Notes: generated by a model from the sequence alone, not told the origin. Positions 9,168-44,650 are shown, numbered from the stretch's first letter. The stretch is 64,000 nt of DNA from Candidatus Poribacteria bacterium (GCA_965242965.1 OZ251518.1:2944001-3008000); one strand, 5' to 3'. Made by a program: numbers and translations.

Positions 9168-9687
9168 TGAGGGTGTTTCATATTTCAATGTCTGCCCGGT
9201 AGGCGCGCCCGGTCTTGATGTCTTCCCGGTAGGAGAGACCTCGGGTCTCGATGTTCCCGTAGCGCGGGGGCCTGTCCCCCGCGTTGGCCATCGTCAGGAG
9301 TGGGCGTTTTAGGTCCTAAAGGACTAAAAGAACCAGAGACGTTTTTCCGTAGCGCGAACGATGGCGAGGGACAGGCCCTCGCCCTACGGTGAGGGGGATG
9401 GCGTTTTTTCATCGTAGCGCGGGGCCCCTCGGATGCCATACGCGCATCCGAGCGGGTTTCCCCCGCGATCACCATCGTCACGATGTGTTTACCTCTCTGT
9501 AGTTTGTGATCGCCTGATCACAAACGAGTCAGGATCAGGCGATCCTGACCTACAGCGGTGAGGCGGTCTGACAGCCAAACGCATGGCGAGAGACAGGTTT
9601 CCCTCGCCCTAAGTGAAGGGGAGGCGTTTTTTCACCGGAGCGCGGGGCCTGTCCCCGCGACGTTGAACGAATTATGAAACCTCCTCG
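9168..9687. mobile_element. MITE-like element: TIR-bounded REP cassette
   Basis: Left TGAGGGTGTTTCATA, right TATGAAACCTCCTC; interior made of REP modules; non-coding. Confidence 0.65.
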
Positions 9688-9732
9688 CTTAAATTGCTGT
9701 GAAGTTTTTATTGCCTATAGAGGAAATAGCAA

Positions 9733-10833
9733 ATGGAAGCCCACTACCAAGATACCGCGTCCCACATTCGTGTGACAAACCTCACCGCGTTTCCCATGGG
9801 TGTCAAGTCTTATGTCAAGATTGAGACGAACATGGATGTCACCGGTTGGGGTGAAATTAACAACATGGAGCCCACCGTCTCCTGCGCGCTGGCACGTTCG
9901 CTGTCCGAACTCATCATCGGCGAGAACCCGACGCGCATTGAACATCTCTGGCAGCGCATGTTCCGCGCGCATCGCAACATCCGCGGTGGCGGTATCATGG
10001 TGCATACGCTTTCTGCCATTGATATGGCACTCTGGGATATCGCCGGCAAACTCTGGGGCGTGCCAGTGTATCGCCTCCTCGGCGGGCCCTGCCGCGACAA
10101 AATTTGGAAATATCCGAGCCCTAAGGCGATTAAAACCGGTCCCGGCGGTTCCAAACCGTTCGCAGGCACGCCTGACGAGATTGAGGGACTCCTGCAACGC
10201 GTTCGCGAGACAAGAGAAAAAGTCGGTTCCGACGGTGCTGTCATGTTTGACGCACACAGCTGCCTCCCGCCGCCGATTGTCAAGCAATTCGCGAGTTACC
10301 TCAAACCCGACGATTTGCTTTTTTTAGAGGAAGCATGGGTGCCCGGCAACATTGAAGTCATGCGCAAGGTTCGCGAATCTGTCCCTGTGCCTCTCGCTAC
10401 TGGCGAACGCGACCGGACGATTTGGGAGGTGCGCGAAATTTTGGAGGCGCAGGTGATTGACATCTTGCAACCCGATTGCGGGCACGGCGGCGGCATCACG
10501 CAGGTGAAAAAGGTAGCCGCCCTCGCCGAAGCGCATCACGTGCCGATAGCACCGCACTGCACGATGTCCTATCTCGGACTCACCGCCAGTTTCCAACTCG
10601 CCGCGTCCGTGCCGTTCTTCCTTATCCACGAAGGGTATGAGAACGTGTTGCCAGATGGCGTTGCGCACAAGACGTGGGTGATGGACGCAGAGGGATACGT
10701 TTCATTACCGGAAGGCCCGGGCTTAGGCGTTGAGGTTGACGAGGCGCGCGTCATTGAAGTAGGGAATGAATCCGGGAGGCGTTTCACCTGGCCCAATAGC
10801 CGTTTGAGGGACGGTTCTGTTGCTGATTATTAA
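9733..10833 (+). CDS. Mandelate racemase/enolase superfamily sugar-acid dehydratase (DgoD-like)
   Basis: SAIDMALWDIAGK, MFDAH, FLEE, ATGER, LQPD, PGLGV. Confidence 0.88.
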   Translation: MEAHYQDTASHIRVTNLTAFPMGVKSYVKIETNMDVTGWGEINNMEPTVSCALARSLSELIIGENPTRIEHLWQRMFRAHRNIRGGGIMVHTLSAIDMALWDIAGKLWGVPVYRLLGGPCRDKIWKYPSPKAIKTGPGGSKPFAGTPDEIEGLLQRVRETREKVGSDGAVMFDAHSCLPPPIVKQFASYLKPDDLLFLEEAWVPGNIEVMRKVRESVPVPLATGERDRTIWEVREILEAQVIDILQPDCGHGGGITQVKKVAALAEAHHVPIAPHCTMSYLGLTASFQLAASVPFFLIHEGYENVLPDGVAHKTWVMDAEGYVSLPEGPGLGVEVDEARVIEVGNESGRRFTWPNSRLRDGSVADY

Positions 10834-10837
10834 CCGG

Positions 10838-11222
10838 TAGGAGAGACCTCCTGGTCTCGATGTTCCCGTAGCGCGGGGGCCCTCGGATGCCACACGCGCA
10901 TGCGAGCGGGTTCCCCTCGCCATGCGTTTTGCTGTCAGACCTCATCACCCCTGTAGGTCAGGATCGCCTGATCCTGACCTGTTTGCGATCAGGCGATCGC
11001 AAACTACAGAGGTGGGCCCGATACGCACCACATCAAGACCAGGAGGGCGCGCCTACCGGAAGGCATCGAGACCGGGAGGTCTCTCCTACCAGCAGCGCGG
11101 GGGCTATCCACGCGACGTTGAGCGAGTTATGAAACACCCGCACTTAATCCTGGAAATCCTGGAAATCGTGTAAATCCTGCTCGTCATCGTGGAAATCTTG
11201 TAAATCGTGTAAATCCTGCTCC
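10838..11222. repeat. REP cluster with right TIR motif, followed by AAATC(C/G)TG short repeats
   Basis: ..GTTGAGCGAGTTATGAAACACCCGCA ending at about 11142; then GAAATCCTGGAAATCGTGTAAATCCTGCTC-type repeats. Confidence 0.8.
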
Positions 11223-11828
11223 TCATTCAAAAAGTCTCCAGACTTCACACGAAAATCCCGGCACCACCTCTTCCCCTGTCAGCGTGTCTTCGCGCGTGAG
11301 CAACGTGATGTCGGTTTCGGAACGATAGATTGTCACCGTTTGCGCCACTGGTTCGACAACCCAGACGAGCTGCGTGCCGGCATCCAAGTAGTTCAGCACT
11401 TTTTGGACAATCCGAAACTGCACGTCTGATGGAGAGACTACCTCTACCGCCAGGTCTGGTGGAATTTCAAACGCCTTGCGCCGTTCTTCCGGCAGCCGCG
11501 CGTTTGAGATAAACGCGATGTCGGGGATCAGGACGCGCTCGCCGACCTGGAATCCCGTGTCAGGTAGATAGACGCGGCCCAATTGATTCTCACGGACATG
11601 CGCCTGCAAATGCCAATCAATATTGGTGCTAATATCACCGTGTTCGCCTGATGTAGGTGACATCTCTATTAATTCTCCTTTGACGTATTCATATCCCTCT
11701 AAATCGCTCGCGAGGAATTCCTCCAAGGTCATCGCTGGCAGGGAGAGGGGTTCCTGCGCGAAATCTGATTCCTCTGTTGGTGGGGGTTGGATGCCCACTT
11801 CCGCGGGGTGAACTTGCGGTATGCTCAT
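11223..11828 (-). CDS. Uma2 family endonuclease-fold protein
   Basis: YEYVKGEL, PDIAF, PDLAVEVVSPSD, YLDAG.LVWVV. Confidence 0.9.
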   Translation of the reverse strand: MSIPQVHPAEVGIQPPPTEESDFAQEPLSLPAMTLEEFLASDLEGYEYVKGELIEMSPTSGEHGDISTNIDWHLQAHVRENQLGRVYLPDTGFQVGERVLIPDIAFISNARLPEERRKAFEIPPDLAVEVVSPSDVQFRIVQKVLNYLDAGTQLVWVVEPVAQTVTIYRSETDITLLTREDTLTGEEVVPGFSCEVWRLFE

Positions 11829-11846
11829 GTTTTTCTCCTCTTAATC

Positions 11847-12066
11847 TGAGGGTGTTTCATATATCGCTCAACGTCGCGGGGGACAGGCCCCCGCGCTACG
11901 ATAAAAATCAGACGCTCCTCAGTAGGTCAGGATCGCCTGATCCTGACCCATTCGGGAGCGGGCGCTCCCGAACTACAGAGGTGGGCCCGATGCCTTCCGG
12001 TAGGAGAGACATTGAGACCGGGAGGGCGCGCCAACCGGGAAGGCATCAATTTATGAAACACCCTCC
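11847..12066. mobile_element. MITE-like TIR-bounded REP cassette
   Basis: TGAGGGTGTTTCATATATCGCTCAACGTCGCG ... TTATGAAACACCCTC; TTAA near both ends. Confidence 0.7.
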
Positions 12067-13440
12067 TTAATCTATCCACTCCATCGTTTGCCGGAGTTTC
12101 TCTTTGGCTTTCGCGTGGTCCCGGCGTGCCTGATAGAAGACGCGTTGCGCCTCGGTGAACTGCGCCTGCGCTTGGAATGCATCGTCAAATGTCAACCCGC
12201 GATAATTTGGCAATTCTACCGTGACTTCATCCAGCACGCGCTCAATTGCACGGAGCCGTTGCTCATAGATTTCCACGCGCCGCTGCTCAATCTCAATTCG
12301 TTCTTGCGCATTGGCGACAGCACGGTAATCGCGGCGGACTGCGACGCGGAGGAGGTCGCGCTTTTCGGCGGCATCCAAGTGGAGTCGCTCAAGTTCGGCG
12401 AGTTCTGCCGAGCGCAGGTTCTCTGTCTGTTTCCCATCGAAGAGCGGCAGGTTGAGATTGAACTGCAGTGCCCATCCCTCTTCGGCGCGGGGCGTGCGTT
12501 CAAAAATGCTCGGCACATCGCGTTCTCTGTCCAAAAGCACCGGCGTGTAGCGTGCGGTTGCATCCCACGTCCGTTTGCCGGGGTGCTGCTCCAATAACAC
12601 GCGCAGGTCGCGATAGCGTGCCTCGGCTGACACTTCCGGGAACCGGTTCCAGAGTGTTTCGCCGACGATGCGTTCTTGACGCGCGATGTCCCCCGCCAGG
12701 TCTCGCAGAGTGAGGCTATTTTTCAATGCCAGTTCGACAGCGGCTTCCAGCGTGATGTCATCCGCCGGCAAGGGTTGCGCGAGAGTGACGTTTGTGAGCG
12801 GGTCCAACCCGGTGAGCCGGATGAGTTCCGCCGTGTCCACGTCTAAGCGCCGCTGGAGTTCGTTCAAGGCGAGTTGCTGCTCCGATAATTCGAGTTCGGT
12901 ATTGAGGCGGCTCAGGAACAGCACGCGCTTTTTTTCGTGCTTAATTTGCGTGCCTTTGAGTTTTTTGACGAGTTCCACCTCAATCGCGCGGCGTTGGGCA
13001 ATCTCTTCCTGCGTCAAAATCATATCGTGCCAGAGGTTGCGGAGTTGGGAGATAACGTCTTTTTTAACGCGTTCCAACGCAATCGTCGATTTGCGGACGG
13101 CTTCCTGCGCCGTGTCTAACCCTTCTGGCACTTCACCGAATTGTGCGAGCAGCACGCTCAATTGGGCGCGGGAGAGGTAGTCCCACTCGTCGCTCGCGCC
13201 GTCCTTTTGGCGTTGATATTCGCCGGTGACACCTACCTGTGGCAGATAGATGGCGCGTGAGATGCGGTGATGTGCCTCGGCACGTGCCACGACTTTCTCG
13301 GCTTTTTTGACGGCCGCGTTGTTTTTCAAGGTGAGTTCGATGGCGCGTGCCGGCGTGAGGATGACGTGGCGTTGCGCGGGGACAGCACGGACGGCGAGTA
13401 AGAGTAAGCAGAGTGTCAGTGCTGTCAGTCGTGTGTTCAT
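12067..13440 (-). CDS. TolC family outer-membrane efflux protein
   Basis: Signal peptide; two OEP-like halves (AIELTLKNN..YLPQV, AVELALKNS..FPEV), NLPLFDG, long helices. Confidence 0.8.
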   Translation of the reverse strand: MNTRLTALTLCLLLLAVRAVPAQRHVILTPARAIELTLKNNAAVKKAEKVVARAEAHHRISRAIYLPQVGVTGEYQRQKDGASDEWDYLSRAQLSVLLAQFGEVPEGLDTAQEAVRKSTIALERVKKDVISQLRNLWHDMILTQEEIAQRRAIEVELVKKLKGTQIKHEKKRVLFLSRLNTELELSEQQLALNELQRRLDVDTAELIRLTGLDPLTNVTLAQPLPADDITLEAAVELALKNSLTLRDLAGDIARQERIVGETLWNRFPEVSAEARYRDLRVLLEQHPGKRTWDATARYTPVLLDRERDVPSIFERTPRAEEGWALQFNLNLPLFDGKQTENLRSAELAELERLHLDAAEKRDLLRVAVRRDYRAVANAQERIEIEQRRVEIYEQRLRAIERVLDEVTVELPNYRGLTFDDAFQAQAQFTEAQRVFYQARRDHAKAKEKLRQTMEWID

Positions 13441-13506
13441 GGTTGTGTTGCGTCTCCTCTCTGTCTGGCGCGGGACAAGCCTTCGCGCGACGATAACAGC
13501 CGGTTT

Positions 13507-15825: not shown

Positions 15826-16556
15826 TCGCTCTCCTCCTCTGCCGGTTCATACCCGGCGACGTACCGAAGATACAACGCCTCCAGATTCTCCTCGGCTATC
15901 TCCTCGCGCGTCAACTCGCGCTCCAGCGTGCCGGCTACCAGAATGCCGATTTTGTCGGCTATCGCCTTGGCGCGGAAGATGTCATGCGTGGACATGAAGA
16001 TGGCTTTCCCTTCCTCCCGCAAGTCACGGAGCAAATTCAAGAAATCCGCACCACCCTTCGGATCCAACCCCGATGTCGGCTCATCCAACAGCACGGCTTG
16101 CGCATTCTTCATCATCGCAATCGCAATACCGAGACGCTGCCGCATCCCTTTAGAAAACGTCTTCACCCGCCGCGTGAACGCCGCTTCTGGTAACCCGACG
16201 CGTCCAAGGGTAGCATCCAGTTCGTCGTTGGATACCTTCTTCCTGCCGCCCAGTTTCGCAAAAAACGCCAAGTTCTGCCGCGCCGTAAAGTTGCGATAGA
16301 GCTCCACATTCTCCGAGACGTAGGCCAAATGCCGCTTCGCAGCCAGCGGAAACTTCGGAATCTCAATATCACCGATGAGTGCCGTGCCGCTTGTTGGTTC
16401 AATGAAGTTGAGCAACATTGATATCGTCGTGCTTTTCCCCGCGCCATTCGCGCCGAGCACGACGTAGATTTCACCCGCGTTGACGGTGAGGTTCAAGGCA
16501 TTCACCGCCAACACCGTCTCGTTGAACACTTTCGTTAAGTCACGCGTTTGTAACAT
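15822..16556 (-). CDS. ABC transporter ATP-binding protein
   Basis: Walker A GANGAGKST, FSKGMRQR, LLDEPTSG, STH. Confidence 0.95.
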   Translation of the reverse strand: MLQTRDLTKVFNETVLAVNALNLTVNAGEIYVVLGANGAGKSTTISMLLNFIEPTSGTALIGDIEIPKFPLAAKRHLAYVSENVELYRNFTARQNLAFFAKLGGRKKVSNDELDATLGRVGLPEAAFTRRVKTFSKGMRQRLGIAIAMMKNAQAVLLDEPTSGLDPKGGADFLNLLRDLREEGKAIFMSTHDIFRAKAIADKIGILVAGTLERELTREEIAEENLEALYLRYVAGYEPAEEESE

Positions 16557-16669
16557 GAAGAACCTCCGTTTACGGTCAGGTTTGTTTGAGCCTCGCGTTG
16601 CAGGTTTTCCTGAAACGCGTTCTTTTGGTAAGTAGTTTGTTCTATACGATGAAAAAACGTCTCCCTTCA

Positions 16670-17225
16670 CGTAGGGCGAGGGCCTGTCCCTAGCCATGCG
16701 TTTGGCTTCAGACCGCCTCACTCCTGTAGGTCAGGATCGCCTGATCCTGAACTGTTCGGGAGCGGGTGCTCCCGAACTACAAAGGTGGGCCCAATGCCTG
16801 CCGGTAGGAGAGACCTTCTGGTCTCGATGCGAGCAATGTTCCCGTAGGAAAGCCCTCCCAGTTTCTATGTTATTATACCTTATTTCCTGACAAAAATTCA
16901 GAAAAAAGGGTGTCTATTGATATGAACTACAGAGTTATTCCGTTCGCGAAAAAAACTGCCTTAAGCCTTACACACCTGTGATGCCAAAAGGTTGCATCTT
17001 TTTTGGCTCAGTTCAGGTTTGCGAGGGACAGGCCCTCGCGCTACGATGAAAAAAACGCCTCCCCTTCACGTAGGGCTTGGGCCCTCGCATGCCATACGCG
17101 CAGGCGAGCGGGTTTCCCTCGCCACGCGTTTTGCTGTCAGACTGCATTCCCCCTGTAGGTCAGGATCGCCAGATCCTGACCTGTTCGGGTGCAGGCGCAC
17201 CCGAACTACAGAGGTGGGCCCAATG
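16670..17225. repeat. Two REP clusters flanking an AT-rich spacer
   Basis: GTAG palindrome families at 16670-16865 and 17020-17225. Confidence 0.85.
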
Positions 17226-17230
17226 CCCCC

Positions 17231-18676
17231 TCACTTCACCTCGCTCTTCAAAAACGAAATCTGCGCGATGATGAAAAACAACGCATTAAATAGAATTAAC
17301 AACCCCACCGGCATCAGCACGCTTTCGTATGAGAGCCGCTCTTTAAATTGCGGCACAGCATTCGGGTTCACCGGTTTTTGGGACAATCCCTCTTTCACGG
17401 GATAGATGTGCAGACTGCCCGGGTCGCTTCTATCCTCCGTTTTGACGAAATCGGTAAACGTTTGCCGATACCGACGCGCCTGCTTGACGAAATTCATATA
17501 ACTGCCAATCCCCGTGTTTGCGAGGGCTTCCATCGCCTGTTGGAAGCACGCCAGGGGCGAAAACTGCGTCAGGTCTCGGGCGAGTTGCACCTGTCGTAAC
17601 TGCCGGTCGATCTGGGCATCAGCCAGCTGCGTTTCCGTATCTCTGCGCTTGAGAAAGTAAGTGGCCCATCGGCGCGTCGCCTCGGGGTTTTCGGCAGATG
17701 GGGATTTTTGCAACCGTGTCGAGTGGGGGTGCCGAAATTCTTCTTCGATTTGCGCCAATTGTGCTGATTTCTGTAACGCAACTTCGTCAATCGAAGGAAT
17801 AGGATTCAGGTTGCCGACAAAGGTGCCGAGCAGACTCGGAAAGGCGAACGCAAGGCAGACCCAGGTTAACAAAAGCCAGACTAAACTCGTGATAGAGTTG
17901 GAGACACGACTGGAGACAAACAGCCCGAGGAAGATGAAACTTGAAACCAGCAGTGCCATGAGCCCTACCATGCCGAGGATGCGCAGCCACTCGCCGCCTG
18001 CCAGCGGGATACTTTTGGTAAGCAGGAGCACCAGCAAATTCATCAGGATACCGATGGCGAGGGGCACCATGAGCGTGAGAAACGCCCCGAGGTATTTGGC
18101 GAACAGCACCTGTCCGCGGGAGACCGGATTTGACATGATGAGGCTCAGTGTGCCGCGGGCGCGCTCGCCGGCGATGGCATCAAACGTGAACAAGATAGTG
18201 AAGAAACTCATGAGAATCCCGATGAACACCCAGTCTAGCTTGATGCGTTGTGTCGCCTGTCCACTCTCACTCGGCAGCGGATATTGTAATGTCCACGGAG
18301 AATTCCATGCGTAAGGTTCCAAATCGCCAAAGCCGCTGCGGCTACTTTGAATGTTGCCTGACATCACGACGAATTTCGGGATGACTTCGTCGGCACCATC
18401 GGCGCAGAATGTCAGCGGGCTGGGCCGCTTGGAAAGGAGCCTGGGTCCGCTGATGGCTAACGCCGCCAGACTCTCCGCTGCTGACGCTTTGAGTCCGGTG
18501 CTCGTTCTGGATACACGTTGCTGATGCGCGTTGTTTTCTGCCATCCAACCGCCGCCGGCTAAGCCGTAGATGAGCGCGTTCGCTAGCATCAGGAGCGGCA
18601 GCAGGAGGAGCATTAACGCGAATCTCAGCGTCGTGAGGTTATGATAGATTTCTTTCGTTGCAATGTGCCAAATCAT
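17231..18676 (-). CDS. ABC-2 type permease (type B)
   Basis: IATKE, FDAIAGERARGTLSL, FAKYLG; six TM with large external loops. Confidence 0.88.
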   Translation of the reverse strand: MIWHIATKEIYHNLTTLRFALMLLLLPLLMLANALIYGLAGGGWMAENNAHQQRVSRTSTGLKASAAESLAALAISGPRLLSKRPSPLTFCADGADEVIPKFVVMSGNIQSSRSGFGDLEPYAWNSPWTLQYPLPSESGQATQRIKLDWVFIGILMSFFTILFTFDAIAGERARGTLSLIMSNPVSRGQVLFAKYLGAFLTLMVPLAIGILMNLLVLLLTKSIPLAGGEWLRILGMVGLMALLVSSFIFLGLFVSSRVSNSITSLVWLLLTWVCLAFAFPSLLGTFVGNLNPIPSIDEVALQKSAQLAQIEEEFRHPHSTRLQKSPSAENPEATRRWATYFLKRRDTETQLADAQIDRQLRQVQLARDLTQFSPLACFQQAMEALANTGIGSYMNFVKQARRYRQTFTDFVKTEDRSDPGSLHIYPVKEGLSQKPVNPNAVPQFKERLSYESVLMPVGLLILFNALFFIIAQISFLKSEVK

Positions 18677-18769
18677 TTGGAACTCCTTTGAGATCAGATA
18701 CCCACCCTGGTAGACGCGGTTTCTAACGGCGCAGACTTGCGGTGAGCGCGCCTACCGTTCGCGATGCCC

Positions 18770-20317: not shown

Positions 20318-20388
20318 AAACCAACCTCCTAATGTAAAATAAAAAATGAGCAGGATTTTCAAGATTTACAAGATTAGCACGATGAGTC

Positions 20389-20835
20389 CGTAGCGCGGGG
20401 GCCTGTCCCCCGCGATCGCACGCGTGCCCCAGAGACTGTAGTTCGGGCTCGCCTAATTCCGAACGGGTCAAGAGCACGGCCTCCTCACTACCGTAGCGCG
20501 GGGGCCTGTCCCCCGCGATCGTTCGCGTGCCCCAGAGCACGGCGAGGGACAGGCCCTCGCCCTACGGTGAAACGGAGACGGCCTTGCATACCGTAGCGCG
20601 GGGGCCTGTCCCCCGCGATCGCTCGACCTGTGCGAAAACCGCACGCCGGCCAAGGCCGTTTCCCGTTCCGATCGAGGCACGGCGAGGGACAGGCCCTCGC
20701 CCTACGGTGAAACGGAGACGGCCTTGCATACCGTAGCGCGGGGGCCCTCGGATGCCACCCGCGCATCCGAGCGGGTTTCCCCCGCGATCTCCCGCGTGCC
20801 CGATGGCCTGGCGAAGGACAGGTCCTCGCCCTACG
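20389..20835. repeat. REP cluster with an internal tandem duplication
   Basis: GGCGAGGGACAGGCCCTCGCCCTACGGTGAAACGGAGACGGCCTTGCATACCGTAGCGCGGGG occurs twice (about 20541 and 20681). Confidence 0.9.
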
Positions 20836-20866
20836 GGTATATGTGACGCATCAACCACATTAGGTG

Positions 20867-25806: not shown

Positions 25807-26284
25807 GATGGATTCCTCCGTGCCGGTAGGCGCAATTGAAAACCGATCGCGCCTATCGGGTTCGTTCTGCGTAAATCCTCATCGAATGTTCGGTTTACTT
25901 GAATAGAGTCAGTTGAACCGAAAAAGGATAGTGAAGAAAAATAGAGTTTGGACAATTTCAGGGGTAACCTCTCTGCGCGGCAGAAGTTGCCGCCTTTCTG
26001 CAACAGAAATAGCCCGCGACGCGCGCGGGAGGGAAGAGATAACGCCGATGCAGCATCGATGCTGCCGAGTTTTTGAAGGTTAACACTTGTAGGGTAAGGG
26101 GGGGGTCTTCGGGGAGTAGGAAATCCGTGATGGCGCGACGAAGGATCTTGACGCGCACGAGAGGTGCGGCATCACGCCGGATTCGTTTTTGGCAATAGCA
26201 TTGAGTCGTCGCAGATTCACGGTGTTTTCCCCTATTCAGTAAGGTGTGCGGATGTGGTTTTTCTCAACATTTAAACCAAATTTT

Positions 26285-26313
26285 ATTTTAACTTAATTGC
26301 GAATTTTTGTCAA
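26285..26313 (-). promoter_or_regulatory. Sigma70-type promoter, copy 1
   Basis: TTGACA-17-TAAAAT on the minus strand, pointing into the ABC cluster. Confidence 0.7.
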
Positions 26314-26412
26314 GTTTTTTTCGTGAAGTTCAGAGCGATTCAGTTTTCCTCGGTAGGAGAGACCTCTTGGTCTTGACTCGCCTCGGTAGGAGAGCCCGCT
26401 AAACCAAGTTTT

Positions 26413-26442
26413 ATTTTATCTTAATTGTCGGATTTTTGTCAA
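26413..26442 (-). promoter_or_regulatory. Sigma70-type promoter, copy 2
   Basis: TTGACA-18-TAAAAT; flanks homologous to copy 1. Confidence 0.6.
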
Positions 26443-26503
26443 GTTTTTTCGTGAAGTCTCGATTTCCGGTGGGAGAGCCCTCCCGGTCTCGATGCAATTC
26501 AGT

Positions 26504-26782
26504 GAACGTGTTTCATAACTTGCTCAACGTCGCAACTGATGAGGGATTTCTGCTGGCTTTAGGTCTGTAGGACCTGAAGAGCCGTTTTTTCAAAAGCGAT
26601 TTCGCCGCTGCGAATGAACACCGCCGTTTTTCCGTAGCGCGGGGGCCTGTCCCCCGCGATCTTCCGGTAGATCGCAGCATGGCGAGGGACAGGCCCTCGC
26701 CCTACGGTAAGCGAGGCCGTTCTGGATACCGTAGCGCGGGGCCTGTCCCCCGCGACGTTGAGCGATTTATGAAACTCCCTCA
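26504..26782. mobile_element. MITE-like TIR-bounded REP cassette
   Basis: GTGTTTCATAACTTGCTCAACGTCGC ... GCGACGTTGAGCGATTTATGAAACTCCCTCA. Confidence 0.65.
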
Positions 26783-26810
26783 TTTTATATTAATTCCTGA
26801 TTTTTGTCAA
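26782..26810 (-). promoter_or_regulatory. Sigma70-type promoter, copy 3
   Basis: TTGACA-17-TAAAAT; spacer similar to copies 1 and 2. Confidence 0.6.
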
Positions 26811-26848
26811 GTTTTTCCTGACAATCATCACATCTCTCCAAAAGCGCG

Positions 26849-27259
26849 TTACATTCCCAAAAGTTCCGCCTTGTATGCCTCAACAATCGCATCCAAAACG
26901 GCTTCCGGAATCTCTTCCAGTTGCGCCGCTAATTCCTCCTCAACATTTACCATGAGGCTGTGATCGAACGTTTCACGTTCCTCGCATGCGTCAAAGAATT
27001 CGCCGTGTGCTTCCAACATGCGTGCCAAGCGTGCCGGGGTCAAACCTGCTGAGATGCCGTGCAGGTCCCACGCGGTGCCTCGGTAGCCTTTCTCATAATC
27101 TGCGCCGAGGTGTTGCTGCGCGATTGCCTCGCGTTGCGCGCCGTCCGCGCCGCTGGTTTCTATCGCTTCCGCCGCGGCGATGGCGCGGGCATCTAATTCT
27201 ATCTGGAAGGCGGTGGAGGCATCTGCCGCCGCCACGGGGTAAATTTTGTAGGTGTTCAT
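26849..27259 (-). CDS. Hypothetical acidic protein
   Basis: 136-aa ORF, protein-like composition, non-repeat sequence. Confidence 0.7.
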   Translation of the reverse strand: MNTYKIYPVAAADASTAFQIELDARAIAAAEAIETSGADGAQREAIAQQHLGADYEKGYRGTAWDLHGISAGLTPARLARMLEAHGEFFDACEERETFDHSLMVNVEEELAAQLEEIPEAVLDAIVEAYKAELLGM

Positions 27260-27279: not shown

Positions 27280-27455
27280 CGTTCGCGGGGGCCTATCCCC
27301 CGCGCTACGGTGAGGGGAGTGTCTCGCGGTTCGTAGGGCGAGGGCCTGTCCCTCGCCGTGCAACGATCGCGGGGGACAGGCCCCCGCGCTACGGTTCTGG
27401 TGCGGGTCTGGGAGGTCTCTCCTATTGCATCGAGACCGGGAGGTCTCTCCTACCA
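27280..27455. repeat. REP-like cluster
   Basis: GTAG palindrome units. Confidence 0.85.
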
Positions 27456-27467
27456 GGTCCGCGCTTC

Positions 27468-28250
27468 TTATACTACTGCGGAGAGCCCACCGTCAATATT
27501 AATCGCGGTGCCGGTGATGAACGCCGCGCAATCTGAAACCAGAAAGGCGACTAAATTGCCGACTTCCTCTGGTTCGCCTAGCCGTCCGAGTGGATGTTCC
27601 GCGCCGCGCTCGTTCCAATACGCCGCTAGCGTTCCCGGTGAACCCGCCGCCTTCCACGCGCGTTCTCCCTGCGCGCTCTTAATAGAGGTGAGACACACGG
27701 TGTTTACCAAGATCTTGTGCGGTAAAAGTTCTTTGGAGAGTGCCTTCGTTAACGCGATGCCTGCCGCCCGACTGACAGAAGTGGGGACTGAAACTGCTCC
27801 CGGCTGTTTGCCGCCCGGATGTGTGATGTTGATGATACGGCCGCTACCGTTCGCTTTCATGTGCGGGATGACTAAGCGCGAGCAGCGCACCGCGCCCATC
27901 AACTTCAAATCCAGATCGGCGTACCATTCTGCGTCGCTAGTCGCTTCAAACGCGCCTGCTGCTGAACGTCCGGCGTTGTTGACTAGGATGTCGATCTTGC
28001 CAAAATGCGAGGCGGTTTGTCCGATAAAATGCTGTAGCGTTTCAGGCGCGGTTACGTCTGCAGGGATTGCGAGGACTTCGCTGCTGGTTTGCGCTTGGAT
28101 TGCCGCTGCGGCATCCGTTAAAACTTCCTCGCGTCTTGCACAGATGGCGATGTTCGCGCCTTCGGCGGCGAGGCGCGTCGCGATACCTTTGCCAATTCCT
28201 TCGCTGCCGCCGGTAATCACGGCGACTTTTCCGCTTAATCCGAGTTCCAT
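27468..28250 (-). CDS. Short-chain dehydrogenase/reductase
   Basis: TGGSEGIG, LVNNAG, IDGG; catalytic Tyr apparently absent (atypical subgroup); AGGAGG RBS. Confidence 0.9.
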   Translation of the reverse strand: MELGLSGKVAVITGGSEGIGKGIATRLAAEGANIAICARREEVLTDAAAAIQAQTSSEVLAIPADVTAPETLQHFIGQTASHFGKIDILVNNAGRSAAGAFEATSDAEWYADLDLKLMGAVRCSRLVIPHMKANGSGRIINITHPGGKQPGAVSVPTSVSRAAGIALTKALSKELLPHKILVNTVCLTSIKSAQGERAWKAAGSPGTLAAYWNERGAEHPLGRLGEPEEVGNLVAFLVSDCAAFITGTAINIDGGLSAVV

Positions 28251-28319
28251 TGATGATTTCCTCCTATAAACATTTGACCCAAAGGGGTTTTATATCCAAG
28301 TGCAAACTGAAACCTAAAT

Positions 28320-28817
28320 TGAGGGTGTTTTATAACTCCGTTTCGGTATTTATCCCGCCTTGGAGGGCGGGCGAATACCGGCAGGCATCGGGCCCTTCTC
28401 TGTAGTTTGTGATCGCCTGATCACAAACGGGTCAGGATCAGGCGATCCTGACCTACAGGGGTGATGTGGTCTGACACCAAAACGCTTGGCGAGGGCTTGT
28501 TCCTCGCCATGCTTGCTTGCCGCTTTCACCGTAGGGCGAGGGCCTGTCCCTCGCCATGCCTAAGGTCTGTAAGACCTTAATGTCTATAGCAGCCTTAATA
28601 AAAAAAACGCGCGGCGTGTCAAAAACTATTAAGGACTTAAAGGACCTTAGGATTCTTCGCAGGCACGCGTGCTATAGACATTAAGGTCCTACGGACCTAA
28701 GAGACGTTTTTTTAAGGGGGCTTTCTGCCGCCGCGCCCCCGGTAGGCGCGCCGTCCTATTGCATCGAGACCAGGAGGTCTCTCCTACCGGGATCCATCGA
28801 GTTATGAAACACCCTCA
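28320..28817. mobile_element. MITE-like TIR-bounded REP cassette containing the nested-IR element
   Basis: TGAGGGTGTTTTATAACTC ... GAGTTATGAAACACCCTCA (19-bp TIR, 1 mismatch); ATT flanks the GAGGG..CCCTC core on both sides. Confidence 0.75.
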
Positions 28818-30440
28818 TTTAATTACAGAGAGTTGGATATTAATCGCCTGCGGTACTGCATTAAGCACATCGCTGGCTATCAATCCGTGCATGCCCGAGG
28901 CTTCAGCGGCGATGTCACCCGCCAAGCCGTGAAGATAACTGCCAAGCACCGCCGCCCTTTCGCCTGACAACCCCTGCGCCATCAAACCTGCGATGATGCC
29001 GGTGAGGATATCTCCCATGCCAGCTGTCGCCATGCCGGGGTTACCCGTTGGATTTATCCACGTGCTGCCGTCAGCGTGCGCGGTGACGGTAGGCGCGCCT
29101 TTAAGCAGAAGCGTCACACCCCATTCCTGTGCAAATTGCTGTGCCGTGCCAATCCGGTCTGCCTCTATTTCTGGGATAGTTGTTCCTATTAGACGCGCCA
29201 TCTCGCCCGGATGCGGTGTAAGGACGATGTCAGCATTTGAGCGAGCGCGAGGGACAAGAGTGGGCGGCCGCGCTACGTTCGTTTGTGCTAGCGCGTTCAA
29301 CCCATCTGCGTCAATGACTATACCCAATCCCGATTTCGCATGGACTAAGCGATGAACCAACGCCGCGGTCCCCGGATGTTGTGATAACCCCGGCCCGATA
29401 GCCATCACCGATTTCGTTTTTTCCGCAAATTCGAGGATGGATTCGGCGGCGGACTCCGCCAAACTACCCGCCTCCGTTTCGGGCAATGGCAACGTCATCA
29501 CTTCAGACAACTTCACCTCTAAAATCGGGTTCAAACTTTTCGGAATTGCGAGCGTGACGATGCCCGCGCCGATGCGCAAGGCGGCCTCACTTGCCAAAGC
29601 CGCCGCGCCTGTCATCCCCGTTGAACCGGCGACGACGAGGACGCGGCCATAACTCCCTTTATGCGATGCCCGCGGCCGAGGTGGCAGCCAAGATGCCGCA
29701 TCCTGCGCTGTTGTCCAATTCACACCGATATTTTGCGCGTCAACAACCGATTTGGGAAAACCGATGTCCGCAACTTCTAGTTGTCCTGCGAACTCGGCAC
29801 CGGGGTGCAACAACAGCCCGCGCTTCGGCAGCCCGATTGTTACCGTTTTGTCTGCGCGGATACACGCGCCCAGCGGCTGCCCAGTATCGGCATCCAGTCC
29901 GGAAGGTAAATCAACGGCGATGACAGGCACGGAGAGGCGATTGATGTCCTCAATCACAGCCGCAATCTCCCCGACAACCGGGCGGCGGAGTCCCGTGCCG
30001 AAAATCGCATCGACAAACAGTTCACATTGCGCGTGGCAAGGGACAGGCCCTCGCGCTACGGTATGCAGCGCGGTTGTCTGTGTCCGGGAAATGGTTCCTA
30101 CCAGCTCTGTTAGGATTTCCTCCATCGGCAATCCTAAATTCCGGGCAATGTGGAGGTTCGTTGCTGCGTCGCCGGTAAAACTTTCCGCGGGAGAGACGAG
30201 GAAGATATGCACATCGCGACCGGCATGCGCCAACTGCCTCGCGATGACGAGCCCATCGCCGCCGTTATTCCCCTTGCCGACAAAGATGCCGATGCGCCGG
30301 CAGTCAGGATAGTCGCGTTGGATGGAACGGACGATGGCACTCCCGGCGGTTTCCATCAGGACGATGCCGGGAATGCCGATGCGTTCTATCGTATCGCTGT
30401 CGATCTGGCGCATTTCCGCCGCTGTGACAATCTTCATCAT
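28815..30440 (-). CDS. nnr: Bifunctional NAD(P)H-hydrate epimerase/dehydratase (NnrE-NnrD)
   Basis: LMETAG, GKGNNGGDG, DAIFGTG, HKGSYG, IGPGL, DADGLN, TPHPGE, GMGDILTG. Confidence 0.95.
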   Translation of the reverse strand: MMKIVTAAEMRQIDSDTIERIGIPGIVLMETAGSAIVRSIQRDYPDCRRIGIFVGKGNNGGDGLVIARQLAHAGRDVHIFLVSPAESFTGDAATNLHIARNLGLPMEEILTELVGTISRTQTTALHTVARGPVPCHAQCELFVDAIFGTGLRRPVVGEIAAVIEDINRLSVPVIAVDLPSGLDADTGQPLGACIRADKTVTIGLPKRGLLLHPGAEFAGQLEVADIGFPKSVVDAQNIGVNWTTAQDAASWLPPRPRASHKGSYGRVLVVAGSTGMTGAAALASEAALRIGAGIVTLAIPKSLNPILEVKLSEVMTLPLPETEAGSLAESAAESILEFAEKTKSVMAIGPGLSQHPGTAALVHRLVHAKSGLGIVIDADGLNALAQTNVARPPTLVPRARSNADIVLTPHPGEMARLIGTTIPEIEADRIGTAQQFAQEWGVTLLLKGAPTVTAHADGSTWINPTGNPGMATAGMGDILTGIIAGLMAQGLSGERAAVLGSYLHGLAGDIAAEASGMHGLIASDVLNAVPQAINIQLSVIK

Positions 30441-31153: not shown

Positions 31154-31212
31154 TAGCGAAAAAATATCTTTCAGGGAGGGCTTTATGCCCACATTCTATA
31201 AAGGCGCGGGCA

Positions 31213-31638: not shown

Positions 31639-31648
31639 AGAATTAACG

Positions 31649-32563: not shown

Positions 32564-32659
32564 GGATATTGCTGTCCAAAACGCGACTTGTATTTTAACC
32601 GGATTTGTGATACAGTAAAAACGTTCCTGAATCCGTATCTGGAGCCGTTCCTCCTTATC

Positions 32660-33198: not shown

Positions 33199-33226
33199 AG
33201 AAACCATGGCGAAAAGGAGAATGTGC

Positions 33227-34240: not shown

Positions 34241-34244
34241 AATC

Positions 34245-34775: not shown

Positions 34776-34821
34776 TGCCAGGGGATAACTCGGTTCCCCA
34801 TGTTTTAACGAACAAAATGCC

Positions 34822-37800: not shown

Positions 37801-40800
37801 ATCGGTGGCAAAATCGGGACTGTCGTTTATGTCAACGGTGAAGCGACGCGTATCGTCGCTACCTTGGCAGACCCGACGGGGACAGGTTTGGCGTTTGGTA
37901 ACGAAGGTTCAAGAATCAGTATCACCAATGCCGATGGCACGGAGATACCGGGCGTTACAACCGTTCAGGGAACAAACCAGCTCGTCTGGCAGGCAATTGG
38001 ACAGCCGACAGATGGCACCGCCGATGGACGCTACACCGTCACTGTCACCCCGATAGATAAAGCCGGGCGGCAAGGCGAAGTGGCGCGGCGGCAGTTTATT
38101 TATGATACGCAACCGCCACAGATAACAGAGGCATCGCCGCTGGTATTGACGCAACCTGTTACCTTTGTCCGTGCAGGCTTTGCAAGCGATACCCAACTCC
38201 AATTCACTGTGGCAGATGTTGGACCCGCGGGCGTGAAGATGGCGGAACAAACCGCGCAACTCCTCGGTGCCGATGGAACGGTGCTCAGCACGGTTGTGAC
38301 TCGGAATCAGACGGATCTGATGTTCTTAACGCTCACGGAACCCTTGGCGAGAGATGGCAGCGCGGACGGTAGTTATGTTGTCAGCGTGTCGTTGGTGGAT
38401 AGAGCGGGCAACGAGACAAAAGCGGATTACGCCGTGGCTTATGATACATTGGTGCCGCAAGTCACCGGTGTGACGTTAAACACAACGGAACCGACACCGC
38501 TCGTCGCCACGCAGCCGACGGTGATAACGGAGCTCGGTTTCAGTGCGCTTGACATTGCGTTTGAAGAAACAACCACCCGCGTGGATTTTGCCAACACGAC
38601 GATAACGTTGACGGGCCCGGACGATGCAGCCATTCCGTTGACACTGATTCCGCAAGGGAAGGCGCAGGTGACAGCGGCGTTCGTTGCGCCGCAGGCACTC
38701 GGCGTGTATACGCTCAGCATTACCCCGCAGGACATTGCCGGGAATGTGGCGCGCGGCGCGGTGACTTACCGGTTCCGCCTTGATGTCAACGTGCCGAGTG
38801 TGAGTTCGGTTGTGATTGATGGTAAAGTCGGCGGCACCGTGTATGTCAACGGCGCAGCCACGGGCATCGTCGCCACGCTAGCTGACCTGAGTGGTGCAGG
38901 CATCGCCCTCGGTGAAGGCGGTTCTACCATCACCGTTGCAAATGCCACTGGCATACCTGTCCCCGGCACGACAACCGATGATGGTGTTGACACCTTGACA
39001 TGGGTGCCCGGCGTATTGCCCTTGGATGGCACGGCGGATGGCCGTTATACGGTGACGATAACGCCGCGCGATAAAGCGGGACGGCAAGGCAATGCAGTCT
39101 ACCGCCAGTTTGTTTTTGATACCCAACCGCCGCGGGTGAACGAAGCGACACCCATAAACTTGAATCAACCGCGCACCTACCTCAATGCCAGTTTCGCGCA
39201 AAATCCGCAGGTGCAGTTCACCGTTGCAGATGTCGGTCCGGCGGCGTTAGACTTAGCGGCGCAGCGGGTTCACTTCCGCACGGCTGATGGAAACGAGGTG
39301 CCCGCGGCGATGAAGTATAACGAAACAGGCAATGAGACAGGCAATGAGACAGGCCAGGTGTTCCTCACGTTGACGGAACCGTTGCCGATAGATGGCAGTG
39401 CCGATGGCGATTATACCGTCATGCTCACACTAGTGGACAGAGCGGGCAACGAGACAAAAGCCGATTACGTTGTCGTTTACGACACCCAGGTCCCACAAGT
39501 CACCGATGTGACGTTAAACACGGCGGAGCCGACACCGCTCGTCGCCACACAGCCGACGGTGATAACGGAGCTCGGTTTCAGTCAACTTGACATTGCGTTT
39601 GAAGAAGCAACCACCCGCGTGGACTTTGCCAATACGACGGTGACATTGACATCCCCGGACGACGAGACGCTCTCTCTGACGCTCGTGCCTGAGGGTGAAG
39701 CGGCGTTAAGCGCGCAGTTCGTTGCGCCACAGGCACTGGGTATCTATACCTTGAGCATTACGCCACAGGATATCGCCGGCAATACTGCACGCGGCGCGGT
39801 GACTTATCGCTTCCGCTTGGATGTTGACTTGCCGAGAGTGAGTTCGGTTATGATTGATGGCAAAGCCGGTGGCATCGTGTATGTCAACGGCGAGGCGGCG
39901 AGCATCGTCGCCACGTTGGCAGACCCGAGTGGTGCAGGCGTTGCCCTCGGTGAAGGCGGTTCTACCATCACCGTTGCAAACGCCACTGGCACGCCTGTCC
40001 CCGGCACGACAACCGATGATGGTGTTGACACCTTGACATGGGCTCCGGGGGCATTGCCGCTGGATGGCACCGCTGACGGCCGTTATACGGTGACGATAAC
40101 GCCGCGCGATAAAGCGGGCCGGCAAGGCAATGCAGTCTATCGCCAGTTTGTTTTTGATACCCAACCGCCGGAGATAACGGCTGCATCCCCGATAGACTTG
40201 AGTCAACCTGTCACCTATCTGTCCGAATTTTCCCAGATAAGTGTCACCGTTGCAGATGTTGGGCCCGCCGAATTCTGGGTAGAAGAGCAGGTAATGACGC
40301 TCCTTGATACCGCGGGGAATGCGGTGGCAGCGAACCTGACGCATAACGAAGAAGACCGGATTTTCCTCACGTTGCCGCAACCGCTCGCGAAAGATGGCAG
40401 CGAAGATGGGGAATATACGGTGCAGGTAACCCTCGTTGACAAATCGGGGAATAAGTATGCGGCAGAACACAGCATCGTCTATGACACGCAGGCACCGCAA
40501 CTCGTCAGCACTGTGCCAGCCGATGGCGACATTCTCACCGATGACGTATCACAAGTGCAGGCGACTTTGGAAGACGCAGGCGGCAGTGGGATAGACTTCG
40601 CTGCAACGACGTTCACGTTGGTTGCACCCGATGGGACATCTATCACGGGTGCCCTCAGCAACGATGGCGAATCGGAGTTAACGCTGGATCTTAATCCGTT
40701 GGTGGAAGATGGACGTTATCGCATCCGTGTTGAAGCGCGAGATAGAGCCGGCAACGGCGATGAATTGCGGTTTGAGCGCAGTTTCCTACTCTCGCGCACG

Positions 40801-42534: not shown

Positions 42535-42595
42535 AAATTAACGCATCACGAACCCGGTAGGTGTTGTCAAGCGAAAATAGCATACGAGGTAACTC

Positions 42596-42892
42596 ATGAG
42601 CAATGAAGAACTTCAGCAATGGATTGCCGCAGAACTGGCTCGGTTGGACGAACGTTCCGAGACACGCCATGTCAAGCTGCGCGATGAGATGAACACACGG
42701 TTTGACAAAAACGATAACCGGATTGATGGCCTGGATGAGCGCGTGCGCGGGCTGGAATTGGCTGTTGAGCGCGTCAAGACTATCCTTGAAACCCGCAAGG
42801 AGCAAGCGGCTGGCTTATGGGACCGCTGGAAGTATTGGGTGACGACTGCTATCGCCGTAGCCGCCCTCCTGCTAGCATGGTTTAAGTCTTAA
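42596..42892 (+). CDS. Small coiled-coil protein with C-terminal TM helix
   Basis: GAGG RBS; heptads then WVTTAIAVAALLLAW. Confidence 0.75.
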   Translation: MSNEELQQWIAAELARLDERSETRHVKLRDEMNTRFDKNDNRIDGLDERVRGLELAVERVKTILETRKEQAAGLWDRWKYWVTTAIAVAALLLAWFKS

Positions 42893-43010
42893 GTAAGGTG
42901 ACAGGACTGAATTTTCAGATGTGTCTCCCGCCGGACTCACTTATAGAAACAAACGCACCACGAACCCGGTAGGCGCGGTTTCCAATCGCGCTCTCCTGAG
43001 GAGAAAAACC

Positions 43011-44009
43011 TTGCAAAATTTGTGCATACGAACAATTCAACTAATACTCATCGCAGCCCTATCAATTTGCGCACTATGCCTTCTTAACCCAAGCGCGCTG
43101 GCGGTGAATATCCATGACAATGCCGGCACCGCCGGTGCCGCCTTCCTGAAAATTGAGGGAGGAAGCCGCCCCGCAGGCATGGGCGGCGCGTTTGCAGGCA
43201 TCGCAAACGATATTAACACCATCTTTTGGAACCCCGCCGGGCTCACCTCCGTTCACGACAGAGAGCTCACGGCGATGCAGCACTTCTCGTTTGCCGACAT
43301 TAATAACCAGACCGTGGGTTACGCGCAGCGCACCGAACGGTTCACTTGGGGAGCCAGTTTCCTCGGCAGTTTCACCGAAATTGAACGGCGCATCGGTCCG
43401 ACGAAAGAGCCGGATAGCACCGTGACAGTAGGCGGCTTCGCCACTGGGCTATCCCTCGCGTTCCCGTTAGGTTCGGCGATGTCTGTCGGCGGCACAGCGA
43501 AGTTAATCTCGCAGCAACTTGACATCCAAGATGCCTACGGTGTCGCGGCGGATGTCGGCATCCTCCTGCATCTCGTTGACAACCATTTCGGAATCGGGGT
43601 TGCGGTGCAAAATGCGGGGGTGTTAGATGGCGGCGAGAACCTCCCGATAGCCATCCGTGCAGGCATGGCATACCGGACGTGGAAGGAATCTGTCGGAGAT
43701 AACCCAGGTCTTGATGCTCTGCCGCGCGAAGTCTGGGCACTCGGTGCGGATGTGCATATCCCGTTGATTGATGCCTCGCCGAGTTTCCACATCGGCGCGG
43801 AACGGTGGTTTTACGATGTCGTGGCGGCGCGGCTTGGTTACCGCATCGGCTTGAACGACAATCCGGCGAACGGGTTGGCACTCGGCATCGGCGTGCGGCG
43901 CAGCGGCGATGATGCCTTAGCGAACATCGACTTCCAATTTGATTACGCCTTTGTCCCTGATGCTTATGTAGGCAATGCGCATCGGGTTTCTGTCATTACG
44001 CGGTTTTAG
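43011..44009 (+). CDS. PorV/PorQ-like (UPF0164-type) outer-membrane beta-barrel
   Basis: GTAGAAFLKI..GSRPAGMGGAF...D......WNPAGL; ends FDYAF....G..HRVSVITRF; TTG start after GAGGAG. Confidence 0.82.
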   Translation: MQNLCIRTIQLILIAALSICALCLLNPSALAVNIHDNAGTAGAAFLKIEGGSRPAGMGGAFAGIANDINTIFWNPAGLTSVHDRELTAMQHFSFADINNQTVGYAQRTERFTWGASFLGSFTEIERRIGPTKEPDSTVTVGGFATGLSLAFPLGSAMSVGGTAKLISQQLDIQDAYGVAADVGILLHLVDNHFGIGVAVQNAGVLDGGENLPIAIRAGMAYRTWKESVGDNPGLDALPREVWALGADVHIPLIDASPSFHIGAERWFYDVVAARLGYRIGLNDNPANGLALGIGVRRSGDDALANIDFQFDYAFVPDAYVGNAHRVSVITRF

Positions 44010-44035
44010 TTCATCCGAGGGTGTTTTATAACTCG

Positions 44036-44650
44036 TTGTTGTCAAAATGGTCTCATGAGACCCCGAACGATTCCGTTTCCCCGGTAGGAGAGACCTCCCG
44101 GTCTCGATGCAATAGGGCGGCGCGCCTACCGGGACAGCGGCGGCAGAAGGTCCCCTTCATCGTAGGGCGAGGGCCTGTCCCTCGCCATCGTCCGCGCACT
44201 CCAACGATCTCGGGGGACAGGCCCCCGCGCTACGGCAAAAAAACGTCTCTTGTTCTCTTCAGGTCCGTAGGACCTGAATGTCTATAGCACGTGAGGCTGC
44301 GAAGAACGCTAAGGGCCTTTAGGTCCTTAATAGCCTTTGAGATGCCGCGTGTTTTTTATTAAGGTCCTAACGGACCTTGCCGTGGGACCGGCACGTGTTT
44401 CTATAGACATGTAGGTCCTAAAGGACCTAAAACGCCACCGCTTGACGATGGTGCTCGCGTGGGCCTGTCCCCCGCGCTACGGGGAAATCGAGACAGTGAG
44501 GTCTTTCCTATAGGGAAGCATCGAGACAGGGAGGTCTCTCCTACCCAGAGGGATTGAGCTCGGAAGGGGCCGCCCACCGGCAAGTCCCCATTTTTCACAG
44601 CAGCACGGGGCCTGTCACCGCGACGTTGAACGAATTATGAAACCCCCTCA
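44036..44650. mobile_element. MITE-like TIR-bounded REP cassette
   Basis: GAGGGTGTTTTATAA ... TTATGAAACCCCCTC; interior REP modules and an inverted copy of the nested-IR element. Confidence 0.7.

Follow-up and report, generated by a model that had tools for sequence, protein, structure and literature searches.

The sequence studied here, referred to below as the window, is a 64-kb stretch of the genome of a sponge symbiont, Candidatus Poribacteria. Its genes encode TPR, LRR and NHL repeat proteins, a 2,570-aa Ig-repeat protein, GFO/IDH/MocA oxidoreductases, NadA and Nnr; this content fits Poribacteria, and NadA and Nnr have 69–84% identity to proteins assigned by NCBI to Candidatus Poribacteria. 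Most of the non-coding stretches between the genes are full of short GC-rich hairpins of the repetitive extragenic palindromic (REP) kind. Five paired elements, designated E1–E5, are bounded by inverted copies of one terminal motif, and two further hairpin arrays have a lone right end (S1 and S2). In our reading, to which a probability of about 0.6 is assigned, the five elements are shells of an insertion sequence (IS) specific to Poribacteria, similar to MITEs (miniature transposable elements with inverted repeats as ends); the founder would have carried a hairpin of the REP-A family at one end, and the interiors would have been remodelled later. The identity of the ends with those of an IS encoding a DDE transposase, the non-random pairing of the ends, their common junction with REP-A, the presence of the same modules with and without ends, and a structural polymorphism at one locus in close relatives, read from protein C-termini, were observed.

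E1 (9168–9687, 520 bp) has the left end TGAGGGTGTTTCATAT and a decayed right end that reads CGAGGAGGTTTCATAA on the minus strand; its interior modules follow in the order C, (B), A, F, A, H, D2, D1, A. E2 (11847–12066, 220 bp) has five REP modules between its ends; on one side it touches a stop codon, and on the other the distance to a start codon is 18 bp. E3 (26503–26782, 280 bp) has two ends of the type joined to a REP-A tail and separates copies 2 and 3 of a local ~125-bp unit. Both ends of E4 (28320–28817, 498 bp) are exact to the search motif, and its interior includes a palindromic sub-element composed of modules F and G. E5 (44016–44650, 635 bp) has a REP-A junction at its right end. 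Mapping of the modules in the five elements confirmed that their interiors vary in both length and module order. As for the lone ends, S1 (7929–7944, minus strand) is exact to the 18-mer consensus and has a REP array on its inner side (7719–7928), and S2 (11127–11142, minus strand) has the array 10834–11126, which begins directly after the TAA stop of the gene 9733–10833. No left partner was found for S1 or for S2.

The ~125-bp unit at E3 is present in three copies around the element (26283–26830) and consists of TTTTATTTTAnCTTAATTG..GATTTTTGTCAAGTTTTTT followed by REP-B. Its third copy has a terminator-like hairpin (26804–26824) downstream of the gene 26849–27259 (minus strand).

Terminal Motif

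With up to two mismatches, the motif TGAGGGTGTTTYATAA is found 11 times in the window (7929−, 9168+, 11127−, 11847+, 12051−, 26503+, 26767−, 28320+, 28802−, 44016+ and 44635−; the sign denotes the strand) against 0.03 expected, and none of 100 shuffles reached 11 matches. A twelfth, decayed end at 9672–9687 (minus strand) has 4 mismatches to the 18-mer consensus. Of the 12 ends, two are lone right ends, and the others make up five inward-facing pairs, each of a left copy on the plus strand and a right copy on the minus strand. Random placement of 12 ends yielded at least five inward pairs in 0 of 100,000 trials; in the null models, the ends were placed within the 23 repeat arrays of the window (mean 0.79 pairs) or over the whole window (mean 0.34 pairs). 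The preliminary description of this DNA had proposed five non-coding elements that start with the motif and finish with its inverse, and this arrangement is upheld by the pairing. Its boundaries for E1, E2 and E4 stand, while the third element begins at 26503 and the fifth at 44016 rather than 44036; the lone right ends that it placed at 7945 and 11142 are present and finish at 7944 and 11142.

All 12 ends are outermost in their own arrays and face inwards, a geometry that was seen for no other module. Only E3 has a module beyond an end, namely, one REP-B just outside its left end. Left and right ends differ consistently, and their variants are matched in pairs: the left ends of E4 and E5 have TTTTATAACTC in common, and those of E1 and E2 have CATAT. 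Like MITEs, the five elements have terminal inverted repeats (TIRs) at both ends and are small (220–635 bp) and non-coding, with no open reading frame (ORF) of at least 100 aa inside any of them. The ends are decayed, with a mean of 1.8 mismatches per 18 positions, or ~10% divergence, and the elements have the look of old miniature transposons into which a second kind of repeat has moved.

An additional sequence, AGGGGTTTTATAT (28283–28295), was detected with a 13-mer core at up to two mismatches; it lies 37 bp to the left of the left end of E4 and may be a decayed extra transposon end.

Relation to Insertion Sequences of Other Poribacteria

A scan of genome contigs (596 Gb) with the motif gave 100 loci among the matches listed, 87 of which were unrelated chance matches; by our own arithmetic, a 15-mer would be expected to match ~2,200 times by chance in 596 Gb. 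The other 13 of the 100 loci, from eight genomes, belonged to Poribacteria, and, among the matches listed, only these had TTAAN before the motif and, behind it, one of two conserved inner sequences. In five of the 13 listed Poribacteria loci the motif is located at a contig end, as is expected of a multi-copy repeat.

In one of these relatives (locus L029), two inverted copies of the same 18-bp end, TGAGGGTGTTTCATAAAT, bound an IS of 1,124 bp (3482–4605). The ORF that it contains (3721–4578) is frameshifted near its start and matches the Pfam family DDE_Tnp_1_3 with an E-value of 1.3e-8 (35.4 bits, gathering threshold 27). Full-length homologues of this transposase have 332 aa; 772 matches were found at E ≤ 1e-3, many of them on contigs of 1.1–1.3 kb. 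The few named homologues are Candidatus Poribacteria "hypothetical proteins", and PF13612 was a precomputed annotation on the listed homologues. According to the NCBIfam equivalog model of IS982, three full-length homologues score 55–59 bits, below the cut-off of 130, and this is still the best-scoring family. Since the best family falls far below its cut-off, the transposase is called IS982-like and left unclassified.

Thus, the ends of the window elements equal those of a transposase-encoding IS in a related genome, and the assignment of the ends to a DDE-type element, made earlier from the window, is borne out by the IS of L029. The transposase with the same ends that was to be looked for was found there, IS982-like, and none was found in the window. 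The left side of E5 preserves a further trace of this relationship: 12 of 19 bases adjacent to its left end, counted by direct reading, equal the left subterminal sequence of the IS in relatives. A TIRtron or TIRYT reading was rejected, because the gene between the ends in L029 encodes a DDE transposase and not a tyrosine (HUH) transposase.

The relatives present a decay series of this IS that includes full-length, frameshifted, truncated (L014 and L011), internally deleted (a 685-bp copy in L085/L086, which are on one contig) and miniature copies. The miniature copy, 152 bp in length (L009, 9864–10015), lies between perfect copies of a 6-bp duplication, GTTATT, and contains one REP doublet. 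A second, one-ended copy in the same locus (~17440–17583) has the same junction of REP, subterminal sequence and end. The comparison of the window with the fetched loci of relatives revealed a single match, a 65%-identical gene segment in L009, and no orthologous intergenic DNA.

These full-length, frameshifted, truncated and internally deleted copies would suit another explanation, in which a full-length IS was present at each window locus, lost its transposase gene in place and was entered by REPs, no miniature ever having transposed; the window elements, moreover, all differ inside. We consider such independent decay unlikely. Seven window ends share one exact junction with REP-A in two sub-lineages (see below), which argues for the copying of a common short progenitor; no coding trace of a transposase is present at any of the seven end-bearing loci; and the 152-bp copy with its perfect duplication shows that miniature forms do insert.

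Two side observations concern the same loci of relatives. In L029, an ORF with a weak Cohesin match (4592–5731, plus strand; MKHPQLIK...) takes its start from an ATG within the right IS end (TTATGAAACACCCTCA), so that the end can supply a start codon that reads outwards; by direct reading, the frames from the equivalent ATGs of E1 and E5 in the window meet stops after 9–12 codons. L009 also encodes a TnpB protein (11500–12573, minus strand; OrfB_IS605 and Cas12f-like TNB domain) without an adjacent TnpA, 1.5 kb from the 152-bp miniature.

Junctions between Ends and REP-A

At 7 of the 12 window ends, the end is followed by ATCGCTCAACG and REP-A in one exact junction. Two sub-lineages of this junction were distinguished, one comprising the right ends of E1 and E5 (91.5% over 59 bp) and the other comprising the left end of E2 and the right end of E3 (94% over 54 bp). 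The usual tail of REP-A is GATCGTTCG, and at the junction it reads GACGTTGAGCGA. The inverse motif had been described as often extending to GCGACGTTGAGCGA. This extended form was rejected as a transposon end: it consists of about four more end bases and the usual REP-A tail, so the inverted repeat proper is an end of 18–22 bp that is followed by the tail of the adjoining hairpin.

The occurrence of one exact junction at 7 of 12 ends suggests that an ancestor probably carried a REP when it spread, and a common short progenitor already bearing this REP is the simplest reading of the shared sequence. In this respect, the fixed junction and its two sub-lineages support the proposal that the spreading unit included a REP.

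The same weld of end and REP-A at seven sites could also be expected if the motif were a boundary module of the REP system, either copied by the agent of REP spread or retained as a boundary that binds a protein or resembles a terminator; it would then be comparable to the outer motifs of the bacterial interspersed mosaic elements (BIMEs) of Escherichia coli or to the TIRs that flank tyrosine transposases (TIRtrons). Composite repeats of degenerate GTAG units and unrelated stem-loops are described for Pseudomonas (PMC3733652), and most left ends in the window are without a TTAA flank, which also fits a boundary module. Nevertheless, this explanation seems very improbable, since in relatives the motif flanks a DDE gene and not a tyrosine transposase gene, its outermost and inward-facing position in 12 of 12 cases is a transposon geometry unlike that of the other modules, its left and right variants pair consistently, and a search of Rfam at gathering thresholds gave 0 matches.

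Insertion Sites

The alignment of 20 ends gives the outside consensus nAnTTAAn. An exact TTAA occupies positions −5 to −2 at 6 of the 12 ends in the window and, among relatives, at 8 of 14 ends; the rest are one base off. The TTAA-like motif reported just outside the ends is therefore found at all the window ends, six times exactly and six times with one deviating base. Target duplications are perfect in E2, where TTAATC is repeated directly at 11841–11846 and 12067–12072, and in the 152-bp copy of L009; five of six positions agree in the IS of L029 (AATAAT vs. ATTAAT), and four of six in L085/L086. The flanks of E1 (AATTAT vs. CTTAAA) have no clean duplication. The duplicated sequence may be the 4-bp TTAA or 6 bp in length, and both fit.

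The insertion sites adjoin genes closely enough for the elements to supply or abut stop codons, as had been noticed from the sequence. The gene of an OEP/TolC-like protein (12067–13440, minus strand) ends with a stop codon at 12067–12069 that is the TAA of the TTAA flanking E2, and the stop of nnr (28815–30440, minus strand) at 28815–28817 is the terminal TGA of the right end of E4. On the other side of E4, the translation of the ORF 27358–28269 (plus strand), whose start falls within a REP array, is of low complexity, and the overlapping ORF 27468–28250 (minus strand) may be the real gene; if so, E4 would separate nnr from a downstream gene of the same strand.

REP Content

The hairpins were sorted into at least seven families (A, B, C, D1/D2, F, G and H). 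Family A consists of GTAG followed by CGCGGGGG-cctgt-CCCCCGCG and its variants; families B, C, D and F also begin with GTAG, and the D1/D2 doublet reads GTAG...CTAC. REP-A alone has 55 copies in 64 kb, 52 of which bear the GTAG/CTAC tag, so the earlier identification of the interior modules as GTAG-tagged palindromes is correct. As is characteristic of GTAG REPs and BIMEs, these sequences are short tagged palindromes of high copy number that are extragenic, clustered and mixed in orientation. Their link to HUH transposases is assumed from the tag and from published knowledge. To our knowledge, the window is among the densest GTAG-REP mosaics, with ~10% of the sequence in repeats and one hairpin family alone present 55 times in 64 kb; if this density were typical of the 5.66-Mb genome, the genome would contain thousands of REPs.

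In total, 23 mosaic arrays (147–48277) occupy 6,237 bp, or 9.7% of the window. A transposon end is present in seven of them and 16 have none; no hidden end was detected in these 16 with the 13-mer core at up to two mismatches. The arrays without ends provide the best matches for the interiors of four elements: array 147–640 for E5 (84.9% over 258 bp), the array at 3951 for E1 (81.1% over 159 bp), the array at 20390 for E3 (83.6% over 128 bp) and the array at 147 for E4 (86.2% over 130 bp). The best partner of E2 is the one-ended array S2. Between elements, the longest match is that of E4 with E5 (81.5% over 130 bp), and pairwise comparison revealed common modules without colinearity. Since the same module families occur with and without ends, the "cargo" is not specific to the shell, and the preliminary description does not hold where it tied the REPs to the shell. 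The possibility that E1 and E2 are inverted copies of one element was also rejected, since only single modules align.

At the thresholds used, no window REP module was found in the fetched loci of relatives, and the REP families appear to be lineage-specific by this comparison.

Modules F and G form a palindromic sub-element of ~140–200 bp, which is located at 28560–28700 in E4, at 44258–44431 in E5 and at ~430–640 in an array without ends. Its inverted ends are TAAGGTCC...GTCTATAGCA and TGCTATAGAC...GGACCTTA, and to judge by this structure it looks like a further nested small mobile element.

Variation Downstream of nnr

Since the end of E4 supplies the stop of nnr, the DNA that follows the gene can be read indirectly from the C-termini of Nnr proteins. 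The comparison covered the C-termini of 16 of the 22 Nnr proteins that have at least 90% identity (P0241, P0361–P0374), and four states of the tail were distinguished. In the first, five proteins, including that of the window, finish with ...AIN(T/I)QLSVIK, the stop in the window coming from the transposon end. In the second, four proteins finish with ...AINTQLA. In the third, four proteins continue with ...QLSVIA(V/E)H(R/Q)DQEVSPT.PCR; the sequence HRDQEVSPT is a translation of REP-B and is encoded four times in the window, which indicates that in those genomes REP-B directly follows GTAATT, without an end.

The fourth state was found in two proteins that read ...AINRG(C/S)FITPFR. The sequence GCFITPFR is encoded once in the window, by the left end of E4 (28323–28346, with TGA before it). 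In these two relatives, an end of the E4-left type directly follows GCGATTAAT, 21 nt upstream of the junction in the window, so that the opposite end of the element faces nnr. This end is at another ATTAAT site, and the uninterrupted ATTAAT|ATCCAAC of the window is the empty form of that site. Behind the end, one relative reads KASGPPL and then a stop, which corresponds to a linker encoded in E2 (11976–11996), and the other stops at once; E4 in the window has 36 nt more at that point, a degenerate REP-C. The difference between the two relatives and the window behind the same end indicates that the filling changes in place. At the protein level, the tails thus suggest a presence/absence polymorphism with four junction states, including an end at another TTAA and states without an end. 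To judge by these translated tails, the shell appears to occupy a different site, in a different orientation, from one close strain to another.

The nnr locus also bears on an active container, that is, a DDE transposase that currently cuts and pastes whole units together with their REP arrays and seeds new TTAA sites. The two relatives, with an E4-like left end and the same linker module at a different TTAA and in the opposite orientation, could represent a local hop of such a unit. E2, with five REP modules between its ends and a perfect TTAATC duplication, would agree with it, as would E4 with its two exact ends and the two copies in L009, which have the end, the subterminal sequence and a REP doublet in common. 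The two one-ended arrays and the four relatives with an end-less REP-B at nnr suggest, in addition, that arrays without ends could be shells that lost their ends. We regard active cutting and pasting of this kind as rather unlikely, because no two window elements have a colinear interior in common, the interior blocks of E1, E3, E4 and E5 are closest to arrays without ends, the ends are ~10% diverged and four of five target duplications are gone, no transposase is present in the window, and 16 of 23 arrays retain no trace of an end at two mismatches in the 13-mer core.

The two-tier structure proposed from the sequence stands in part, then: the ends are of the DDE type, the modules are tagged with GTAG and a REP was probably present in the founder, and movement of the whole unit, from end to end and with its filling, is a possibility at which the translated tails at nnr hint. 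A functional coupling of the DDE shell and its REP filling is doubtful; in this view, REP arrays would travel in shells to further TTAA sites beside genes and give rise there to the arrays that now fill most spacers, the end-less arrays being shells minus their ends. If true, it would give REPs of the HUH type a second, DDE-driven route of spread, and the element would be a true composite of two transposition systems.

Two features of the window outside the arrays may also be mentioned. The gene for the 2,570-aa Ig-repeat protein has near-identical internal DNA repeats (38910–39065 and 39948–40103) ~1 kb apart. The region 51587–56426 contains five consecutive ORFs (201–524 aa) with no Pfam match; DNA repeats are present inside the first three (51666–53595), and an identical 21-bp hairpin is found at 51857 and 52558.

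Discussion

The preferred reading, that of remodelled shells, would require the following course of events. The parent IS would be ~1.1 kb in length, with an 18-bp TIR and a 332-aa DDE transposase distantly related to IS982, and would prefer gene boundaries with a TTAA-centred site. In the lineage of the window, one or more founder copies would already have had a REP-A hairpin fused to one end, and the transposase would have mobilised the shells in trans. After dispersal, the general GTAG-REP (BIME-like) system of the genome would have remodelled the interiors through insertion, loss and duplication of hairpin modules and through exchange of multi-module blocks with arrays elsewhere, the REPs presumably being spread by an enzyme of the REP-associated tyrosine transposase (RAYT) type or by recombination. 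The order of a REP-bearing founder, dispersal and subsequent remodelling is likewise what we infer. The container-like appearance of the shells would be due to ends that abut genes or promoters, so that in those spacers only the DNA between the ends would be free to accept repeats.

Several points weigh against this reading. A clean target duplication is present in only one of the five window elements, E4 retaining 4 of 6 positions and E5 3 of 6, while E1 and E3 are poor in this respect. An exact TTAA accompanies 5 of 7 right-hand ends versus 1 of 5 left-hand ends, an asymmetry between the two sides. MITEs are homogeneous along their length, and the window elements have only the ends and one adjoining REP in common. 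The fixed junction could alternatively have arisen through site-specific insertion of a REP or through gene conversion. A relic of the transposase was not found in the window (best tblastn E-value 0.26) or as a coding trace at the seven end-bearing loci. RAYT genes, a check that the preliminary description had called for, were likewise sought, and there was no Y1_Tnp match in 52 ORFs of the window or in 89 ORFs from the loci of relatives; since no RAYT was seen in that DNA, the agent mobilising the REPs is assumed. At nnr, the evidence consists of protein C-termini, and the 21-nt shift could equally come from an inversion and a deletion between the ATTAA(T/A) direct repeats. Finally, the "safe space" between the ends, as the reason why REPs would be located only inside them, is itself what we infer.

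In comparison with known systems, the elements are closest in outline to MITEs. IS-derived MITEs of bacteria include the Correia/NEMIS elements of Neisseria and RUP of Streptococcus pneumoniae, according to PMC3733652. As in these, the window elements are short and non-coding, have TIRs that match an IS, are located at gene-adjacent AT-rich targets and may supply stop codons. However, classic MITE families are homogeneous, whereas the window elements share only ~18–55 bp at their ends, and each has a different REP mosaic. Their parent also differs from those of classic MITEs in being an unclassified IS982-like element that was seen only in Poribacteria.

As for the filling, GTAG REPs, their clustering in variable arrays, RAYTs, TIRtrons and composite ends of degenerate GTAG units and unrelated stem-loops are described in PMC3733652. 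In E. coli and other bacteria, clusters of REPs with linkers and outer motifs are known as BIMEs (PMC2817692, PMC3333891 and PMC3733652). Both BIMEs and the window arrays are extragenic mosaics of GTAG palindromes with alternating orientation, conserved linkers and variable composition, but BIMEs lack the DDE transposon ends that 7 of the 23 window arrays have. PMC3116915 and PMC3337134 describe RAYTs and REPINs, REP doublets to which the D1/D2 doublets (GTAG...CTAC) and the REP-B doublet of L009 are similar, also in their high copy number and position outside genes. REPINs move as doublets and not in a TIR shell, and the DNA read from the window and from relatives is without a RAYT gene.

Composite TIRs of Pseudomonas putida and P. 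fluorescens, which consist of degenerate GTAG-1 units and unrelated stem-loops, and TIRtrons are reported in PMC3733652. In both these TIRs and the window ends, a GTAG REP is welded to an unrelated repeat into a longer, multi-copy end unit; the Pseudomonas TIRs flank tyrosine (HUH) transposase genes, whereas the end of the window type flanks a DDE transposase gene. IS elements that insert into REPs are also described (PMC1525189 and PMC12288879). REP and IS are physically associated in extragenic space in that case as well, and the arrangement is inverse: there, an IS is located inside a REP or BIME, and here, REPs are located inside an IS-derived shell.

The BOX elements of Streptococcus pneumoniae consist of boxA, a variable number of boxB and boxC. 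They are similar to the window elements in having fixed outer modules as ends and a variable number of inner modules, and differ in that their inner modules are all of a single family, which is not a REP family. We know of no autonomous IS with the same ends for BOX.

A limited search of the open literature yielded no account of DDE-type ends that enclose REP arrays. A likewise limited search of open full text found nothing relevant on REPs or MITEs of Poribacteria, so the repeat content of these bacteria appears to be undescribed in the open literature searched.

The analysis thus points to an IS family that is restricted to Poribacteria and is claimed by no curated family model, and to a REP system and an IS system that are nested one inside the other in the window. 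If whole shells move with their filling, this would be a new route for the spread of REP arrays and a natural cooperation of two transposition systems. The turnover of repeats rewrites the C-terminus of Nnr between close strains, which have four different tails depending on whichever repeat follows the gene. Such repeats also break assemblies: for five of the 13 Poribacteria loci among the matches listed, the contig ends at the motif. Both the assembly breaks and the changes of protein C-termini matter for the annotation and comparison of metagenome-assembled genomes of symbionts.

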